DNA of 64,000 nucleotides from Butyrivibrio sp. (GCF_015056685.1 NZ_SVFW01000006.1:44522-108521), one strand, 5' to 3'. Numbered from the stretch's first letter, positions 4,792-39,629 are shown. The notes: generated from the letters alone by a model not told the origin. Numbers and translations: made by a program.

Positions 4792-4842
4792 TTAACTCTG
4801 TATATTTAAGCACAACAATTTATAGAGATATAGATTATAAAG

Positions 4843-4888
4843 AGGATTCTTGCGCAAGCTAAATGCTTGCGCGAGAATCTTTTTTTCT
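4843..4888 (+). terminator. Rho-independent terminator of tig
   Basis: GATTCTTGCGCAAGC / GCTTGCGCGAGAATC stem followed by TTTTTTT. Confidence 0.8.
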
Positions 4889-4891
4889 TTG

Positions 4892-4955
4892 GAAGACAGA
4901 GGGACGGTTCTAATGACTTGTTTTTATAAGTCATTAGAACCGTCCCTCTGTCTTC
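4892..4955. repeat. REP-like long perfect hairpin (28-bp stem), member of a small dispersed repeat family
   Basis: GAAGACAGAGGGACGGTTCTAATGACTT gttttta TAAGTCATTAGAACCGTCCCTCTGTCTTC. The core GGGACGGTTCTAATGACTTA recurs at 62410-62449, 63687-63739 and 63742-63795. Confidence 0.8.
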
Positions 4956-5057
4956 TTGATGTAGCATTTTATAAAAATGTTAGATTTATAGTGTTAATTA
5001 ATATAGTGAAACGTACGATAAACAGATAAGTAATAGTCTTTTTATTAAGGGTGATTA

Positions 5058-8000
5058 ATGTTCATGACTATTAAATCAGTACTTAATAAAAGAATAGTTG
5101 CAATATCTATGTCATTTGTGTTGGCAGCATCTGTCATCAATTTGACATCTTTTGCCAAGCCCGAAAAAGATGATGCGAAAGTCATCAGTAGTTTTCTAGA
5201 ACTTCCTGAGGGTATCGCTACCCAGCATCTATCTGTGGGGGATCCTTTTGAAAAGATAATATTCCCGGATAATTTAATAGCATATGTGGTAAGTGAAGGT
5301 GGAGAAGCTTCGTCACTTCTATCTTCTGATGAGTCTGCAGTTTCACTTAGCGCTTCAAGTGGAGATTCGGCAGATGCTGCAGCAAGCAGTAGCAGTTCAC
5401 TAGACGAGGCAGATGCTGCTGCAAGCGCATCAACTGAAGAAGAGTCTTCCGATGCAGCAACAGCAGGAAGTATGGTCGATGCCAATACTGATAGTAGTGA
5501 AAGCGGCTCTTACAAAAAGGAAAATGCAAATGAAGGTGATTCCTCTGCCACAAATAATACTATAGATGGATCAGGTAGTGAGAAAGAAAAGGAAAGCGAA
5601 AACGGCACAGATAATGCGGGAAACAACGGCGAAAATAACAGCGATGGAAATGGAGAAGCAGAGGCTGCAAGTGAAGGGGCAAAAGGAACAGAGACTGGAA
5701 CAACGTCAGAAGATACTCCTGGTGGTAATAAGGATGGTGAAAACAGCAATTCTGTAAATGAGCAGGATGACGAAGATAGTGATTCTGCCAGTGACCAGGT
5801 GGCTGAAGATACTGACTCCGGAAACGGAGATGAGGAAGGCAATGGTAATTCTGAAAATGAAGATGTAGATTCTGATAATGATCATGATAATAGCTCAAAC
5901 AGTGAAGAAAACGATAATTCAGGCGATGCTTCAGGTGACAGCGCAAAGCTGACATTTTGGGAGAGACTGTTTGGAAGGATGACAGTTTATGCTGCTGAAG
6001 AAGATGATGATAAGACATCATCTTACATAGCACCCGGAGATTACAACGAAGACGATACGGAAGATGATATTGATAAAGAAGATGATGAGAGAACTCTTGA
6101 AGAAATCTCGATTTCAGTAATAGAGTGGAAGCTTGATGGCACTAAGAGTACTTCGGAGGATTTTAGTACTAAGGAACCCGGGGCGGTATTTGTTTACTTC
6201 CCTGTTATTTCTGATGAATACAGGATTGAGAGTGATTTTCCAACTATCACTGTATATGTGGATGAGAAAAAAGAAGATGAAGAAGCAGTTTCTTTTGAAC
6301 AGACAAGTATTATAAATGGCGTTTCAATAACTGTGAAGGCAGCCGAAGGAGTATTCCCGAAAGGTGCGCGCCTTATTGTAAGCGAAGTTTCTCAAAGTGA
6401 AGAGACGCAGATATTAGATGCTGTAGAAAAAGAAAGAACTGATGATGTAAATGTAGCTGCATCGTACTCTTTTGATATAAAGGTCGTTGATAAGGATGGA
6501 AATGAGCTGCAGCCTGATACTTCAAAGGGTGAAGTAAAGGTTAGCTTTTCTCTGGTGGAAGTGGCAAATGATAACCTTGATACAGGAGTTTATCATGTGG
6601 CAGATGAAGCGGGAGACCTTAATGCGTCAAAGCTTGATGCAGAAACTAGTGGAAATGAAGTTACTGTAGAGACCGACGGCTTTTCTTTTTACACTGTTGA
6701 GTTCACCTATGGGAAGATCGAATACTCAATTGAAGGCGGCGGAAGGGTATTTCTTTCAGAAATCCTTGATGCAGTGGGACTTAAAGGAACTGCCACAGAT
6801 GCAAGGTCAAGCAATGAGGACCTGGTCAGTGTAAAAAGAGATGACGAAGGCGAGATATATCTTGTTTCCAACAGGGAGTTTCATTCGGATGAAAAGCTTG
6901 AAGTGGATATTAGCGGCATAACCTATGAGATTCTTATGACCGATGCGGCTGTTACTGCAAGTGGTGGTACTTTAGTATATGACGATGATTTTAATAAGTC
7001 TGCAAGTGATCTGGTAAAAGAGATTCTTGGTGGCGGAATAGCTGCAACTAACGAATCAAGAACGGGAACAGTATATACATTTTCAAATGGACTTGCGGAT
7101 GTAGGAATAGATGCAGGAATTATTCTTGATACAAGCGGAAAGATTGCTGGTGGAACTGATGCGCAGCTTAATTCAATTAAAGACTCTGCTTATAGCTATG
7201 GCGGACATACGTCCACCTTGGAGTTTTCACTGGTTGCAAATGGGCCTCTTTTGACATTTAATTATGCTTTCGCTTCAGGAGAGTTTAATCAGCCACCAAA
7301 ATATAATGATATATTTGGACTCTTTGTAAGTGTCAATGGTGGAGCATATGATAATATTGCGCTTATAACAAGGACAAATGGAAGCCAGGTTCCTGTCACC
7401 ATAAATAACTTAAGAGCCGGTGTTGACGGCACTGAGATGAGTGGTGGTACCAGTACTACTTTAGGAGGACTTCACAGTCTTTTTACAGAAAAGCAAATAC
7501 AAATTAATGGCGGTAGTATTAATGGAGTTTCTAATGTTTTTACAGCCCAAAAACAGGTTAATATTGGAGATACAGTAAAGATCAAGCTTGCAATCTGTGA
7601 TATATCAGATACTGCTGTTAATTCGTATATTTTTATTGAAGCAGGCTCTCTTTCTTTCCATGCCCCTGAGTCTGAAATTGGATATATTGATGAAGAGCTT
7701 AATAACCTTGATCCATCGTCACTTTTTGAAATAACAACTGATGATGGAACAGTTCTTAGTATTACTTCATCAGGAAGCGGAACAATACCACTTATAGGTA
7801 CTGATGACAACGGAACACCTTATAACATTATTGATACTGCTGTAGCTATAGTAAAAAAAGGTACCGGTGGATACGGAGATTCACCTCCACAGCTGCTGGC
7901 TATTCCTCCAAGGCCAATAGCTGAAGATATAGATCCAAGTGGCGGAGGGATATCTGCTGATCCTGAGACGGTTTCAGTTATTTTCCCAGCTCCTGATCCT

Positions 8001-10178
8001 ACGAAACCTTCACAGAAATACAGGCTTTATGATAAAGATGGCAATGAGATCCCGGGAAGAGACTGGGTGGATGCGCCAACGGATGGGACTCCTTTGACAT
8101 TTGGAGGACTTGATGAAGATACTGATTATATTATAAAGACCTGGATTCCGGCTACAGAAAGTAATTTCAAATCCGAAATTTCTGAAGGTACAACGGTACA
8201 TACAAGACTAAACCCTGTGGATCTTTTACGTATCATTGTTACTGAACCTGATAAAAAGACCATAGTCGCAGACGGCGAGTATCATTCATTTGTTTGTACT
8301 TCTGACCCGGCTGATGCGATCCTCAGATATTCAATTGGTGATGATAAGCATTACGGGTACTCTACGCCTATTTTTAAGGACGTTGGTCAGTATACAGTCT
8401 ACTATCAGGCGGCCAAGGTTGGCTATGTGACTGAATATGGAAGCATGATAATAACCATATTGCCACCTGAAAAAGAGACAATTGTGGATCTTGAAAATGA
8501 GGATGTGGAAAGCTCAATTTCCTCTGTAAAGGCTGATAAACTCTCGGATTATACGGATGAGCAGACAGGAGATAAGGTCAGAGTAAGGCTTTTGGTAACT
8601 CCTAAAAAACCTGAAGATATTGATAGTGGCATTGTAAATAGCGTCACTTCCAAGATAGAAAGCCTTTATGACAGCTCAAATCTTGATAATGTGAAAAAAG
8701 AGTTTTTGGATATTGGAGTAACAAGGCGAATCAATGATGAAGATCCTGAGAATATCCATGACCTTGACAGGACAATAGAGATTGAAGTCGGCTTTGATAT
8801 GACTGATAAGGAAGACTTTAAACTTGTCAGAGAACACGATGGAGAAGTCCTTGCCTTTGCTTCACTTTCAGACAGGCCAACAGATGACTATGTTGATGGC
8901 ACTGTATATTTTGGTGAAAATGTGATCTGCATCTATTCAAGGTACTTTTCTACATATGTTCTTTCATATGTAGTTCCTGTGGAAGTAGTTCCGGAGCCGG
9001 AACCAGAGCCTGAACCAGAACCACAGCCTGAGCCAACGCCAACTCCTACACCGGAGCCACAGCCTGAGCCTAAGCCAGAGCCTAAACCGGAACCAAAGCC
9101 TGCACCAGCGCCAACTCCGGAGCCTACACCTGATCCGGAAGTAAAACATGAGGAAGTGGTTTATACTCCGGCCCTAGTGGAAGTGCCAGCGCCTCCTGTG
9201 ATCATAACTCCGGGAAGAGCTCCCAAGACCAGTGGATTTTATGTTGGAAAGTTTACAGGAGTGTGGATTCTTATCCTTGAGGCAATTATTACAGTTTTCC
9301 TTGCAGGCATATATATTTACATAGGTGAAAAGAAAAAGGACAAGCTGTGGTATAAAGACGGCTGGAAGTCAATATGCCGCGTGGGACTTTTGATAATGGC
9401 TGTTTCTTTTATCCTTATATTCAGGCTTAACCAGGACTATATAAAGTCTAAGGCTATGTACGATGAAGTAAAGAATGAATATGTCACTACTTCATCAGGA
9501 AACGCCGGTAAGATGACAGTTACAAGCGCGGCTGTAAGTAAGACTGTAGCAGAGTCTTTTGGCTATGCGGATGAGCAGGTGCTTGTGACGAGTGCGTCAA
9601 ATGACTGGTGGAATCTTGCTCAGGTCAACGTAAAAGAAATGAGCAAAGACTATGTGGATGTCGTTGGATGGATAATGTTTGAAAACGAGGATATAAGCTA
9701 TCCTATAGTTTATAGCGGCGATAATACGACTTATCTTGAGACTGCATACAATGGAGAGTGGGCCAATGCCGGAGCGATATTTGTAGATGGTCTTTCAACA
9801 CCTGATTTTAACGATCCCAATACTCTGATCTATGGCCATAATATGGGTAATCTTACCATGTTTGGTAAACTCAAATTCTATGAGAATGACAAAGAGTATT
9901 ATGACGAGCACAAATTCTTCCAGATATTTACGAAGGACAAGGTTTACCGCTATCAGATATTTGCCTGCAAACTGATCTCTGACGATCACGAGATCTATTA
10001 TGCATATGGAAAGGATCCAAGGCATTACTGGAGTGCACTCAGTGATATCATCAAGAATGCAGATGTTGAATCAAGTGTTGCGCCTCAGAGCCTTGACCAT
10101 ATAGTTACGCTCTCTACCTGTACTTACGATGACTCCATGAGACTTGTTATATGTGCGGCAAGAGTTGATGAGCACTAA
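5058..10178 (+). CDS. Giant (1706 aa) secreted surface protein fused in frame to a C-terminal class B sortase domain
   Basis: Signal peptide, a ~250-aa acidic S/D/E/N/G low-complexity region, beta-rich repeats, a PEPEPEP..PKPEPKP linker, then a sorting-signal-like segment, a second TM helix and a sortase B domain (YGHNM, TLSTC, R). Confidence 0.85.
9219..9345 (+). other. Internal cell-wall-sorting-signal-like segment (APKTSG, hydrophobic helix, KKKDK)
   Basis: Translation [43 protein letters not shown] has the tripartite layout of a sortase substrate C-terminus, but it sits inside the ORF. Confidence 0.55.
9606..10175 (+). other. Class B sortase catalytic domain of the 5058-10178 ORF
   Basis: [26 protein letters not shown] (His, codons around 9831-9845), IVTLSTC (Cys codon 10119-10121), downstream Arg residues. 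Confidence 0.8.
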
Positions 10179-11317
10179 TTTGTTGGTGGCGGAGCATTTT
10201 GCGGAGCCGACGGCATTTCTGAAATGCCTTTAGAACCGGTATCTTGTGGTACCGGTTCTTTTATTGCATTATTATTGGTTTCAGCTGGGGCACCTTCTGT
10301 AGTTGGCATGTTATCTGTAGGAGGAGCATTTTCTGAAGCACTGTTATTTTCTTCGGGAGCTTCATTTAACTGAGATGCATTTTGATTATCAGGTGCTATT
10401 TGCAGATCAGGATTGTTGTTGCCTTCGGATGGGATGTCGGGATTTTGCAGGCTCTCGGGATCATCAATTGGGATTTGCTTATCAGTTGTGTTTTCCTCCG
10501 GAATCTCACCTGGAATTTCAGAAGGACCATTTCCGTTACCTTCAGCACCAGAGTACTCTGAGAGTATCTCTTTTACGGGGAGTGACTTATAAACATCTTT
10601 AAGGGCTGATAAGTCCTGGCTGTTATCACCGGTAAAAGAATCTGTTTCATTATCAGGGTTGCTATCAGCTATTTGCTTCATGGCTTCGAACCTTCCTGTA
10701 CTCATACCGGAGCCTATGGCTTCCTGCCTTGAAGCTATATCAGATTCAAGGAGGCAAAGACTGATTTTGCTATCATCAAAAGCTTCGGTTATATCACCAG
10801 AAAGATCACTGTAAGAGCGTTCACTTCCGGGGACGACATCAATTAGTATTGAGGCATCGTCACCGAGGAGATAATTGTTTTCCTGTAAAACAGCAACTGT
10901 TTCTGATAGTGCATCGGAAAGAGTTTTGTTTTTCAGACTATCACTAAGGGCATCAACAACCTCGGCAGCATCGTCATTGAGGGCGGTTACGTTTATTACC
11001 CTGTTCAGTCTGTTTAAGGTGTATTCTATGGATGGATTTACATCGACTGTAACATAGGAATAAGCAAGAGCTGTCTCGTACATATAGGAGAGGCCTGCAG
11101 CAATGATGATAAGGGCAGCAGCCGCATATGGCAGAAATAATCTGTACATGCTTTGATGCCTGTTTTTTTTGCCTCTTATATGACAGGTTGTTGGCGAGTC
11201 TGCAATGACTGATATTTCCTGGCCGACGTCAAAGTTACCGGCTATTTTTCTAAAGCATCCGTCATCGCAAAGAACGGCACATATTCTTTTCTTTTTTTCC
11301 ATTACAATTGCGTGCAT
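10175..11317 (-). CDS. RsgI-like anti-sigma factor
   Basis: RsgI_N-like N-terminus [25 protein letters not shown], a single TM helix, an extracytoplasmic VDVNPSIEY segment and a Pro/Asn/Glu-rich low-complexity tail. It lies directly downstream of the sigma gene, and its stop overlaps the convergent giant ORF by 4 nt. Confidence 0.7.
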
Positions 11318-11328
11318 GATCTGTCCCT

Positions 11329-12081
11329 TTACAAATTTGATGGAGAGTTAGTTATAAACCACATATATTCTGAAAGCTGTGGATAATCACCATTTATTAT
11401 CAGTGTTGCAGTGATTATGTAGCGTCTGTATCTATCCAGCATTTTTCTTGATATTCGGCTTTTTTCCTCGAGTTCTTTCATTGGAAGAGTTTTTGAACGT
11501 TTCATTTTCTGCAGCAGTTCTTCTGAAGTTAACATCGCCTTTACAGCCTTAGCGCATGCTCTCTTAGTCTTTTCCGTGCAGGGGGAGCATTTTGTCAGAT
11601 CCATAAAGCTAAAACCATAGTCAGTAAGCTTGCTGCTGATCTCTGCTATCTCATCTTTTACAGTTACCTGATGGTCTATGGAATCTTGTTTTAAATAAGA
11701 AATATCTGCTGATTTTTCCTTGAGCTCAAATGAAATAGGAGACTCCTTGTCCTCATCTATTTCTCCTTCAAAAAGGTAGGGTTCTACGCTAAACTCGCAT
11801 TCATGGTGCTTTGCCTTTCTCATATGATCAAGAATCCTTCTCTTTATGACCAGATTTGCAAAACTTGAGAAAGCTCCTTTGGAAATATCGTAAGAATCGA
11901 TAGCTTCAAGGAAAGCGCTAAGTGCAATGGAGTACTCATCATCACTTTCTGTTATGAATCTTCCCACACATTTATATGCACAGTATTTTATGTATCCTGT
12001 GTTTTTTTCAATAAAAGAATTCAGCTGAGCCGGAGTATTTTTTACCTCTATGACTTCTTCGCTAAATGCATTCTTTTCCAT
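11329..12081 (-). CDS. SigI-like alternative sigma-70 family factor
   Basis: A region-2-like segment (DDEYSIALSAFLEAIDSYDISKGAFSSFANLVIKRRILDHMRK) and a C-terminal helical domain. The start MEKNAF (ATG 12081) is preceded by GGGAG. It is paired with an RsgI-like gene. Confidence 0.7.
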   Translation of the reverse strand: MEKNAFSEEVIEVKNTPAQLNSFIEKNTGYIKYCAYKCVGRFITESDDEYSIALSAFLEAIDSYDISKGAFSSFANLVIKRRILDHMRKAKHHECEFSVEPYLFEGEIDEDKESPISFELKEKSADISYLKQDSIDHQVTVKDEIAEISSKLTDYGFSFMDLTKCSPCTEKTKRACAKAVKAMLTSEELLQKMKRSKTLPMKELEEKSRISRKMLDRYRRYIITATLIINGDYPQLSEYMWFITNSPSNL

Positions 12082-12106
12082 AATTAACTCCCGAGTATAT
12101 TGAATT

Positions 12107-12135
12107 ATTCGAATATGGATGGACAAAGAATGGGG
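12107..12135 (-). promoter_or_regulatory. Candidate sigma-I type autoregulatory promoter (ACCCC ... CGAA)
   Basis: The minus strand reads ctACCCCattctttgtccatccatattCGAAtaatt about 25-55 nt upstream of the sigma start. Sigma-I promoters are known for a C-rich -35 and a CGWA -10. The spacing here (20 nt) is uncertain. Confidence 0.25.
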
Positions 12136-18658: not shown

Positions 18659-20392
18659 TTATGAAGGCATTTCTTCCAATGTGAAGAATGCCATTTTTTC
18701 GTTGAGGGTTTCAGCCATGTCACGAAGATCATTTGCTGCACCACTTATGAGAGAAAATGTAGCATTGAGTTCTTCCATTGAAGCATTTGTTTCCTCTGTA
18801 GAAGCGGCATTTTGCTGAGATATAGCAGAAAGCTCTGTGATAATGTCTGAAAATCCTGCCTTAAGCTCATTAAGAAGATGAATTTTCTTGGATATTACCT
18901 TTGTAGAATTGTCTACATTGTTGACGTTTTCTACAACTGCATCCATATCATCTTTTGTAGTATTGAGCTGAGTATTCTGCTCCTGCATGCTCTTTCCGAG
19001 CTCTTCAATAATTTCAACGTTCTTCTGTGACTCTGCAACAAGATTTTCCACTATTTCCTTGATTGAAACGGCAGCGTCCTTTGACTGCTTTGAAAGGTTA
19101 CCAATTTCAGTAGCAACTACTGAGAAACCTTTTCCGTATTCGCCAGCTCTTGCTGCCTCAATTGAAGCGTTAAGAGAAAGAAGATGTGTCTGTTCAGCAA
19201 TTGCAGTAATCATGTTTGAAGCTTCTGCGATGCTCTTAACTGAATCATTAGTAGTGCGAATCTGTGTATGAATGTCTTTCATTGAAGTCATGACATCTTT
19301 ATTTTTACCCATAAGGTCATGAAGTGTATTTACAGTTCTCTGAGCACCTGACATCATTTCATTAGCAGAATTTGAAAGGTCTTCTATTTTTTCTGTAATT
19401 TCGTCAATACTGTCGCCCATCTGGTTAGTATTAGCTACAGAATTTTCCATGCTCTCAGCCTGAGAAGCAGCTCCACGGCTGATATCCTCTACAGCAGCTG
19501 TTATCTGTTCAGCTACATTAGAAGCAGATTCAGCAGAAGATGCAAGCTTTTCACCGGAAAGAGTTACATCATCTGAAAGCTTTTTAGTTGCGCTGATTAC
19601 ATCCTGAAGTTTGTCACGAACCATAGCGGAACTTTCTGCAATTACACCAAGCTCGTCCTTACGGTTGAATGTACGATCATTGATGTAGAAAGAAAGTTCA
19701 CCATCTTCAAGATTTTTAAGACCTGATACAATATCGCGGATTGATCTTGATGAAGTGCTTATAAGATAACGAGCTACACCAAAGTTGAACAGGAAAAAAC
19801 CAATGAATGTAAAAATAATAGAACGAAGCGCTGCGTCCATATTTGCTTTTACGATAGTAGTATCACGTCCTGCAAAAACCATACCAACAACAGAACCATC
19901 AGAGTTCTTAAGTGGAAGATAGTATGCGTACCAATCCTGACCTGCAATCTCAAAATTTGAAGCAAGATATTCATTTCCACTTGTGAGAACTTCGCTTACA
20001 ACTGTCTCTGAAGCTTTTGTTCCTTCCATTCGCTGACCTGTAGTTGCGTCTGTAAGAGATGTAACAAAACGTGTATCACCATAAAATAATGTATAGTGCA
20101 TACCGGTTTTCTCATGGAGTGCATCAAGCTGTGCCTGGTAAATGTCGTGAACTGCTACGTCACCTTTCATAAGCTGGCCATCCTCTGAAAGAGTCCAGTC
20201 ACCTTCAAACTGATTGGATACTTCATCATTTAAAAGAACTGCCGCTGCATGCAAACCCTCTGAAAAAGAAGTGAGATAAGCTTTCTGAATGTTTCTAAAG
20301 CCTATGATACCAACACATGCTGCCATAAGAAGGGCAAGAACTGATGCGATAACAATTATAGTGCGAACCATGTTTCTGTTTTTTGTTTTCAT
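18659..20392 (-). CDS. Methyl-accepting chemotaxis protein with Cache-like sensor domain
   Basis: N-terminal TM helix, an extracytoplasmic ~170-aa sensor, a second TM helix, HAMP, and a conserved MA signalling hairpin ([27 protein letters not shown]). Confidence 0.9.
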
Positions 20393-20494: not shown

Positions 20495-20575
20495 AGGTGC
20501 AACTGGCTGACATTTTAAAGTCCCTATAGCTTTGCGCCACAGGCTTTCGCCTGCTTTGCCAAATGTTAAATTTTA
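20495..20575 (-). promoter_or_regulatory. c-di-GMP-I (GEMM-I) riboswitch aptamer in the MCP leader
   Basis: The minus strand reads UUUGGCAAAGCAGGCGAAAGCCUGUGGCGCAAAGCUAUAGGGAC...CAGCCAGUUGCACC. It has the GGCAAA element, a P1 hairpin with a GAAA tetraloop, the (G/A)CGCAAAGC core and the AGCCAGUUGC 3' element of the GEMM-I consensus. Confidence 0.75.
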
Positions 20576-39328: not shown

Positions 39329-39347
39329 GCGATATAAGGATTCAAGT

Positions 39348-39383
39348 AGATACAAAGCTGTGCTTGCACAAAGCTTTGTATCT
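39348..39383 (+). terminator. Hairpin terminator after the GH31 gene
   Basis: AGATACAAAGCT ... AAGCTTTGTATCT followed by ATTTG (a weak T-run). Confidence 0.5.
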
Positions 39384-39629
39384 ATTTGAAGACTGAACGG
39401 ACATGAGGAAGTAGCACGATAGTGCGGATTCCGAATGAGCGTAGGATTGCGAGAACGAAGTGTAGCAATCCGTATATCGCGAAACAAATAATTTGTTGTG
39501 CAACGTGCATATAATTTTTAAGGAATATCAATATTTTGTGTCCAATATTTACAGAGGTACAAAATAACGATATAATAAATTATGGTATTTTTATACAAAA
39601 GCCTGCAATTAAACTTAGGAGGGAAAGAA

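Follow-up and report, generated by a model that had tools for sequence, protein, structure and literature searches.

In a 64,000-nucleotide (nt) stretch of DNA from Butyrivibrio sp. (GCF_015056685.1 NZ_SVFW01000006.1:44522-108521; herein the window), an uninterrupted open reading frame (ORF) at 5058..10178 (+), with an ATG start, 1706 amino acids (aa) and a stop codon, joins a large surface protein, its sorting signal and a class B sortase (SrtB) in a single chain, with no internal stop codon or change of frame. Sortase biology assumes separate enzyme and substrate proteins that meet in the membrane. Here, about 280 more residues, comprising a second transmembrane (TM) segment and the sortase, follow in frame past the sorting signal, which therefore does not lie at the extreme C terminus; an internal rather than C-terminal sorting signal is the defining difference from an ordinary sortase substrate. 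The fusion is real and is conserved in many Butyrivibrio lineages. The explanation that we favor, and hold to be probable, is that a sortase substrate and a class B sortase dedicated to it have become fused naturally into one translation product, which would process itself. What is new is that one covalent chain unites substrate and enzyme and has its sorting signal inside, the components and their chemistry being already known. In open-access papers and bioRxiv we found no description of natural substrate-sortase fusions, an absence that is not proof, and nothing on Butyrivibrio sortases beyond genome notes. Public records label the protein just "class B sortase" or show no more than its pair of Pfam domains.

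The protein and its start region are laid out as follows.

5047..5054 (+): Shine-Dalgarno-like AAGGGTGA, 3 nt ahead of the ATG at 5058, by sequence inspection
5058..10178 (+): fused ORF, by translation; the exact protein is also present on other contigs
5058..5156 (+): Sec signal peptide, aa 1-33, with K6, K11 and R12 in the n-region and a hydropathy peak at aa 13-31
5295..6047 (+): acidic low-complexity region rich in D/E/S/G/N, about aa 80-330, by composition
6105..6707 (+): N-proximal β domain, about aa 350-550, from 33-40% identity to fused relatives (L007, L009-L014) and the AlphaFold model
7008..7652 (+): choice-of-anchor L domain, aa 651-865, from the NF038133 match, with PF26766 matching on relatives
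8442..8969 (+): pre-stalk β domain, aa 1129-1304, by homology to the last domain of substrates encoded apart from their sortase
8970..9215 (+): Pro-rich stalk (PEPEP...PKPEPKP...), aa 1305-1386, from the sequence
9216..9236 (+): sorting motif RAPKTSG, R1387-G1393, from the sequence; its position is conserved in relatives
between nt 9230 and 9231 (+): predicted scissile bond T1391/S1392, the putative site of cleavage
9261..9323 (+): TM1, V1402-I1422, hydrophobic element of the sorting signal, from hydropathy and a helix in the AlphaFold model
9324..9380 (+): K/R-rich loop, G1423-R1441, net charge +4, predicted to be cytoplasmic; counterpart of the charged tail of a sorting signal
9372..9428 (+): TM2, I1439-L1457, predicted N-in/C-out sortase anchor, from hydropathy, alignment and an AlphaFold helix
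9429..9599 (+): juxtamembrane helix and low-confidence linker, about aa 1458-1514, from the AlphaFold model
9600..10175 (+): class B sortase catalytic domain, about aa 1515-1706, from profile, sequence and fold matches
9837..9839 (+): catalytic His1594 (LIYGHNM), alignment column invariant
10119..10121 (+): catalytic Cys1688 (TLSTC), alignment column invariant
10140..10142 (+): catalytic Arg1695, alignment column invariant

Much of this layout had been proposed in an earlier reading of the DNA made without database searches (herein the sequence-only reading). The signal peptide it described was placed at aa 1-33 by hydropathy and sequence, with probable cleavage at SFA/KPE, after aa 33; its acidic low-complexity region corresponds to aa 80-330, rich in D (13.5%), E (13.1%) and S (19%); the piece that it had likened to choice-of-anchor domains lies inside the match to NF038133 (choice-of-anchor L; aa 651-865, 94.9 bits against a cutoff of 27, E 4.6e-27); and its PEPEP..PKPEPKP stalk was located at aa 1305-1386. 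The tripartite arrangement of RAPKTSG, hydrophobic helix and GEKKKDK held as well, except that the start coordinate given for it, 9219, is that of the Ala codon, 3 nt inside a motif that begins at 9216. A second TM segment followed by a complete sortase B domain with His, Cys and Arg was recovered as TM2, His1594, Cys1688 and Arg1695. As to the profile searches by which that reading proposed to check the sortase identity, Pfam Sortase matches (aa 1546-1703, E 1.3e-10), while TIGR03064 (srtB) aligns yet scores below its equivalog cutoff (123 bits against 153.75, over profile positions 57-234 only).

Sequence and fold comparisons agree on the class of the enzyme. A search of PDB sequences returned class B or SrtB-family sortases in 15 of 15 matches, the best being Clostridioides difficile SrtB (5gyj, E 6e-23); one of the matches, 3psq (Spy0129), bears a generic name in that search, and its class B label comes from the Foldseek comparison. 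An AlphaFold model of aa 1365-1706, based on a 65-sequence alignment, has a mean predicted local distance difference test score (pLDDT) of 83.8, rising above 90 in the catalytic domain, and contains two long helices that coincide with the TM positions. When compared with the PDB using Foldseek, the top 19 matches without exception belong to class B (E 1e-17 to 1e-12), with sortases of classes A, C and E at ∼1e-7. The columns of His1594, Cys1688 and Arg1695 are invariant in the 65-sequence alignment. On these comparisons we assign the window sortase to a diverged clade within class B, outside the equivalog set of the TIGR03064 seeds.

Kyte-Doolittle hydropathy reveals exactly three hydrophobic segments in the whole chain: the signal peptide, TM1 and TM2. 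TM1 has a 19-residue peak of 2.44 and is followed by GEKKKDK...R; the loop between TM1 and TM2 comprises 19 residues with a net charge of +4, and TM2 aligns with the sole TM segment of stand-alone SrtB relatives. Taken with the positive-inside rule, this two-TM hairpin with its basic loop predicts that the sortase lies outside the cell. Glu1408 (nt 9279-9281) sits in the middle of TM1, and a 56%-identical relative (P0122) also has a mid-helix Glu (LLLILELLLIG); such an acid, conserved and buried within the sorting-signal helix in the two-TM subgroup, may form a pair with TM2 residue Arg1441 or Arg1456.

The identical 1706-aa protein is found on 14 contigs with the same neighbors, drawn from three assembly sources (JGI, ENA and Logan), and the cultured isolates Butyrivibrio sp. 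AE2015 and Su6 encode fused ORFs of 1707 and 1671 aa, with 98% identity over the segment comprising junction and sortase. Within the junction DNA of the window the longest homopolymer is five bases (A5), and GC content shows no compositional break. The sequence-only reading had argued that no sequencing frameshift had merged two genes here, and the 14 contigs, the ORFs of AE2015 and Su6, the short homopolymers and the even GC content all bear it out. For that reading, orthologues in which a stop codon separates the two halves would have told against the fusion: such split pairs exist in related Lachnospiraceae, yet the fused state is kept across Butyrivibrio. An artefact of assembly or sequencing, or the recent merging of two genes by a pseudogene-like accident, would find some encouragement in two relatives (L015 and L017) in which a single-base change in an A10 run switches between the states. 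Set against the 14 contigs, the two isolates and the many diverged fused lineages with intact catalytic residues, such an origin is extremely improbable, and for the window we rule out an assembly or frameshift artefact.

Following the reading frame upstream of the sortase match in 80 species-representative genomes identified the fusion in 11 Butyrivibrio species genomes, five of which are those of cultured isolates. Full-length fused ORFs (1615-1816 aa) are present in Butyrivibrio NC2007, INlla14 and VCB2006 and in four metagenome-assembled genomes (MAGs), and two further fused ORFs run off contig ends; the sortase domains of these relatives share 40-55% identity with that of the window. An exhaustive HMMER search of 1.84 billion representatives clustered at 50% identity yielded at least 12 clusters, at 50% identity, of proteins of 1515-1852 aa with a sortase at the C terminus. 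Among them are P0122 (56% identity; choice-of-anchor L and sortase, junction GRAPKTDN, two TM segments) and the more distant P0240 (IAPNTGD, two TM segments). Occurrence in 11 Butyrivibrio genomes and at least 12 clusters argues for an evolved architecture and not an error. YGHNM...TL[SA]TC...R is retained in all fused members, and the motif consensus of the fused forms is R-A-P-x-T-x-D: among 23 distinct junction strings, one of them mis-parsed (P0123), A is universal, P occurs in 21, and R, T and the D two positions beyond the Thr occur in 20 each. Immediately ahead of the motif, the linker is unconserved and of low complexity.

Twelve Lachnospiraceae loci (L015, L017, L018, L022, L023, L041, L043, L050, L053, L057, L058 and L070) have a large surface-protein gene directly upstream of a homologous srtB on the same strand. 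These split pairs, found in Butyrivibrio MC2021 and AE3009, the MAGs RUI192 and RGIG8607, Pseudobutyrivibrio ACV-2 and others, resemble the window in gene order, in sortase sequence (35-47% identity) and in a large surface protein with a homologous last domain and an xAPxTGD-TM-K/R end; unlike the window, they end the substrate with a stop codon past the charged tail and have srtB as a gene of its own. Their substrates end in xAPxTGD or SPKTSD, a TM segment, a K/R tail and the stop codon, the terminal sequences being ...GARAPQTGDNLPVVWVWVIVLLAGVGLIGFSAFELKRFKRGDFKKKR in MC2021 (L015) and AE3009 (L017), ...LRAPNTGD-TM-YRREDR in L018, ...SAAPKTGD-TM-GKRKRK in L023 and ...RSPKTSD-TM-RARRKEQE in L022, each followed directly by the stop. 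The PKTS variant of the window also occurs in split substrates, as SPKTSD in L022 and L053. Scored against the LPXTG-anchor model TIGR01167, the L023 tail passes (17.9 against 15.9) and that of L015 falls just under (14.7).

The stop codon of the split relatives falls at the region matching the K/R-rich loop of the window protein, and window aa 1129-1304 are similar to the last domain of the split substrates, with the same order of parts (L022, 35% identity, E 2e-23; also L018, L015 and L017). In a neighbor-joining tree of sortase domains, all fused and several split forms lie in one clade, which indicates that the fusion arose from a substrate-srtB gene pair; the split pairs also show that the junction is a genuine sorting signal belonging to this clade of SrtB. 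In architecture and origin, the fusion is very likely to be an adjacent substrate-srtB pair that has lost its stop codon and intergenic spacer. In L018 the reading frames indicate that the srtB start (ATG of MNKK...) most likely overlaps the substrate stop codon.

A self-processing route compatible with this architecture would begin with Sec export of the chain via its signal peptide. TM1 and the basic loop would halt transfer, as in an ordinary sorting signal, and TM2 would re-insert N-in/C-out, such that the sortase would be exported too and passenger and enzyme would stand side by side outside the cell on a helical hairpin. Cys1688 of the same chain, or of a neighboring copy, would then attack T1391-S1392 to form an acyl-enzyme, and the amine of a peptidoglycan precursor would resolve it, fixing a mature passenger of ∼1,360 residues to the wall. 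The leftover (SGFYVGK...TM1-loop-TM2-SrtB) would remain in the membrane as a two-TM sortase and could process more copies. Cleavage at APKT/S with wall anchoring, in cis or in trans, is the mechanism with the most support and appears on balance somewhat likely. A fusion of this kind would guarantee 1:1 coproduction and colocalization of enzyme and substrate.

Several observations weigh against self-processing. Fused forms show a less strict motif than split ones: its fifth position may be G, N, S, H, R, D or K, Met takes the place of Thr (RAPKMGD) in one fused lineage (L007, L008 and P0002), and Ala takes that of Pro (RAARTND) in another (L013 and P0008). This loosening could mean relaxed or lost processing. 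TIGR01167 and PF00746, both models of cell wall sorting signals, give no match at the window junction, and the L007 junction is likewise without a match. In the AlphaFold model the motif region has pLDDT <50 and is not docked at the active site, a result that is uninformative. Furthermore, in the majority of fused relatives TM1 and the sortase anchor are separated by a third, weaker hydrophobic segment, which, if membrane-spanning, would put the sortase in the cytoplasm; the segment is probably interfacial or re-entrant, and it is absent from the window protein, AE2015, Su6, P0122 and P0240.

Where present (L007, L009-L014, P0002-P0008 and P0123-P0131), the third segment (e.g., ALLILGIIVITTAKFFA) is flanked by K/R on both sides.

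The decayed motifs RAPKMGD and RAARTND, the variable fifth residue, the sorting-signal models silent at the window junction and the undocked motif would also suit a permanently membrane-tethered, bifunctional protein that stays uncleaved, its RAPxTxD being a relic of an ancestral sorting signal. The TM hairpin would then hold the passenger, and the sortase would serve other substrates or use the passenger for localization or binding. That membrane tethering is viable for this passenger family is indicated by its closest unfused homologues (P0271-P0280, from Pseudobutyrivibrio and relatives; 42-46% identity, 1372-1573 aa), which lack any PxTG motif and terminate in a single plain TM segment plus a short tail of charged residues. 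We nevertheless regard an uncleaved protein as unlikely: R, A, P, T and D have been kept though the sortases are only 40-55% identical and the adjacent linker is unconserved, PKTS-type variants are found in ordinary split substrates, the catalytic triad is retained in all fused members, and the 64-kb window contains no further sortase and no other candidate substrate that such an enzyme could serve.

The passenger itself was modeled over aa 340-1310 (mean pLDDT 87.3) as a chain of β-sandwich domains that match, by fold, Ig/FnIII/MAM ectodomains from adhesion receptors as well as the Bacillus anthracis Sap S-layer protein. A passenger with enzymatic activity was considered and rejected, the fold search yielding no enzyme fold and the PDB sequence search no match. 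A long chain of Ig/FnIII-like domains is also what a pilus-type polymerase might act on, linking one passenger unit to the next, or to some other surface protein, as a fiber and not to peptidoglycan, and pilus-associated class B sortases are indeed among the sequence and fold matches (Streptococcus pneumoniae type II pilus, 4y4q; Streptococcus pyogenes Spy0129, 3psq). The best sequence match is nonetheless the housekeeping-type SrtB of C. difficile, the neighboring genes include no pilin operon, and no pilin motif or isopeptide domain turned up, without a search aimed at either; a polymerase of this type is highly unlikely. PF26766 relatives vary in their C-terminal anchor, which may be a plain TM segment, xPxTG and a TM segment (KSPQTGD or VPDTG, then TM, in other passenger relatives) or a fused sortase. 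Given these differing anchors, the fusion can be seen as a further "choice of anchor" for an adhesin-like wall protein.

Returning to the fusion, a close parallel is the C. difficile system, in which SrtB substrates carry (S/P)PxTG, mostly SPKTG, ahead of a hydrophobic stretch and a charged tail (PMC5569036). Its SrtB (5gyj) is the closest solved sortase by sequence, and the window protein shares with it the class B fold and a motif of the xPKTG form. In C. difficile, however, one sortase serves several separate substrate proteins (CD2831, CD3246, CD3392 and CD2537), whereas the window encodes a single polypeptide with an APKTS motif and an internal sorting signal. Staphylococcus aureus IsdC/SrtB (NPQTN) and B. 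anthracis SrtB are similar in their class B fold, catalytic triad, dedicated sortase beside its substrate and tolerance of a residue other than Gly after the Thr (NPQT/N); they differ in having separate genes, a heme-uptake context and different motifs. Sortase and LPXTG have been placed in one recombinant chain in engineered self-cleaving fusion tags, which process themselves and use soluble SrtA. Compared with those artificial constructs, the window protein is natural, membrane-embedded, class B and maintained by selection, and has the opposite domain order. By analogy only, the type V autotransporters of Gram-negative bacteria also combine passenger and display machinery in one polypeptide that is often later cleaved apart; their fold, chemistry and envelope are unrelated to those of the window protein, and there is no homology.

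As a "Rosetta stone", the fusion argues for a substrate-enzyme pairing and for an APxT(G/S)D specificity in a large, unstudied clade of Lachnospiraceae SrtB. Whether sortase acts in cis or in trans becomes directly testable with a native protein, cultured strains being available (AE2015, Su6, NC2007, INlla14 and VCB2006), and the fate of the sorting-signal remnant, here the enzyme itself, is raised as a question. The protein could also serve as a natural model for display tags that anchor or ligate themselves, and it hints at how abundant rumen fiber degraders anchor very large adhesin-like proteins in their walls.

In two of the split loci, those of MC2021 (L015:7880-8015) and AE3009 (L017:7945-8080), the substrate stop codon immediately follows an A10 run (TTC AAAAAAAAAA GATAAG). 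Split and fused frames differ here by 1 nt in the run, one more A restoring the fusion, and the sortase frame is open before the A10, where it encodes a homologue of the third hydrophobic segment upstream of any ATG. Between L015 and L017, 8 synonymous and 13 non-synonymous codon differences are found from the A10 run to the sortase start. The sequence of this junction suggests transcriptional slippage, phase variation or a recent frameshift; metagenomes scanned for length variants of the A tract at the MC2021/AE3009 junction gave zero matches. A more far-reaching proposal would have the fused protein act as an obligate "auto-sortase" (each molecule working in cis, with near single turnover, to cleave its own internal sorting signal and fasten its own passenger to the wall), with the fused and split states of MC2021 and AE3009 interconvertible or coproduced through slippage at A10. 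We consider this combination doubtful; if true, an auto-sortase would be the Gram-positive counterpart of an autotransporter.

Two other arrangements were observed next to related sortases. At L047:4646-7864, L062:4517-7753 and L063:5114-7804, large proteins encoded directly upstream of srtB end in RRVAPPNTGD or RRVTPPKTGQ and have an acidic tail after the motif with no hydrophobic segment, and their genes overlap the srtB start by ∼50 nt in another frame. Their products would be sortase-motif proteins without a membrane stop-transfer signal. In Agathobacter, Lachnobacterium and other Lachnospiraceae, a second type of partner-sortase fusion, of 417-460 aa, consists of a TM segment, a signal peptidase I-like domain (GSMEPTIP...THRV...TKGDAN, recognized by eye), two TM segments and SrtB (L027, L029, L038, L039, L042, L048, L052, L061, L072 and L075; the ORF ends near locus position 8600-8830). 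This type of fusion is reminiscent of SipA, a signal-peptidase-like protein that works with a class B sortase in streptococcal pilus loci.

The surroundings of the fusion gene contain the following features.

4840..4947 (+): two terminator-like hairpins after the trigger-factor gene, upstream of the fusion gene
10175-12126 (-): RsgI-like anti-sigma factor gene (RsgI_N, RsgI_M) and a sigma-70 region 2 sigma factor gene, convergent with the fusion gene
20495-20570 (-): cyclic di-GMP (c-di-GMP)-I aptamer, the sole one in the window (54.5 bits, cutoff 35)
39330-39479 (+): Clostridiales-1 small RNA, RF01699 (108 bits)

The hairpins at 4840..4947 indicate that the fusion gene, whose leader is AT-rich, is a separate transcription unit. 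At its other end, the rsgI stop and the fusion stop codon overlap by 4 nt, which leaves no space for a terminator between the two genes. The sigma factor is possibly of SigI type, given its RsgI partner. This rsgI/sigma synteny is found only in the near-identical strains AE2015 and Su6, whose ClpP and ClpX are 100% identical to those of the window; the DNA accordingly derives from a rumen Butyrivibrio closely related to these two. Elsewhere the fused genes lie beside sugar-sensing two-component, sugar-binding protein or GH5 genes, with no conserved partner, and the P0122 gene adjoins flagellin genes. A functional link to the SigI/RsgI pair was considered and dropped, the synteny being limited to AE2015 and Su6 and the neighbors elsewhere being varied. 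The C. difficile SrtB substrates have a c-di-GMP riboswitch in their 5′ leader. None is present in the 5′ leader of the fusion gene; the c-di-GMP-I aptamer of the window is located upstream of a gene for a Cache-domain methyl-accepting chemotaxis protein (18659-20392, -).

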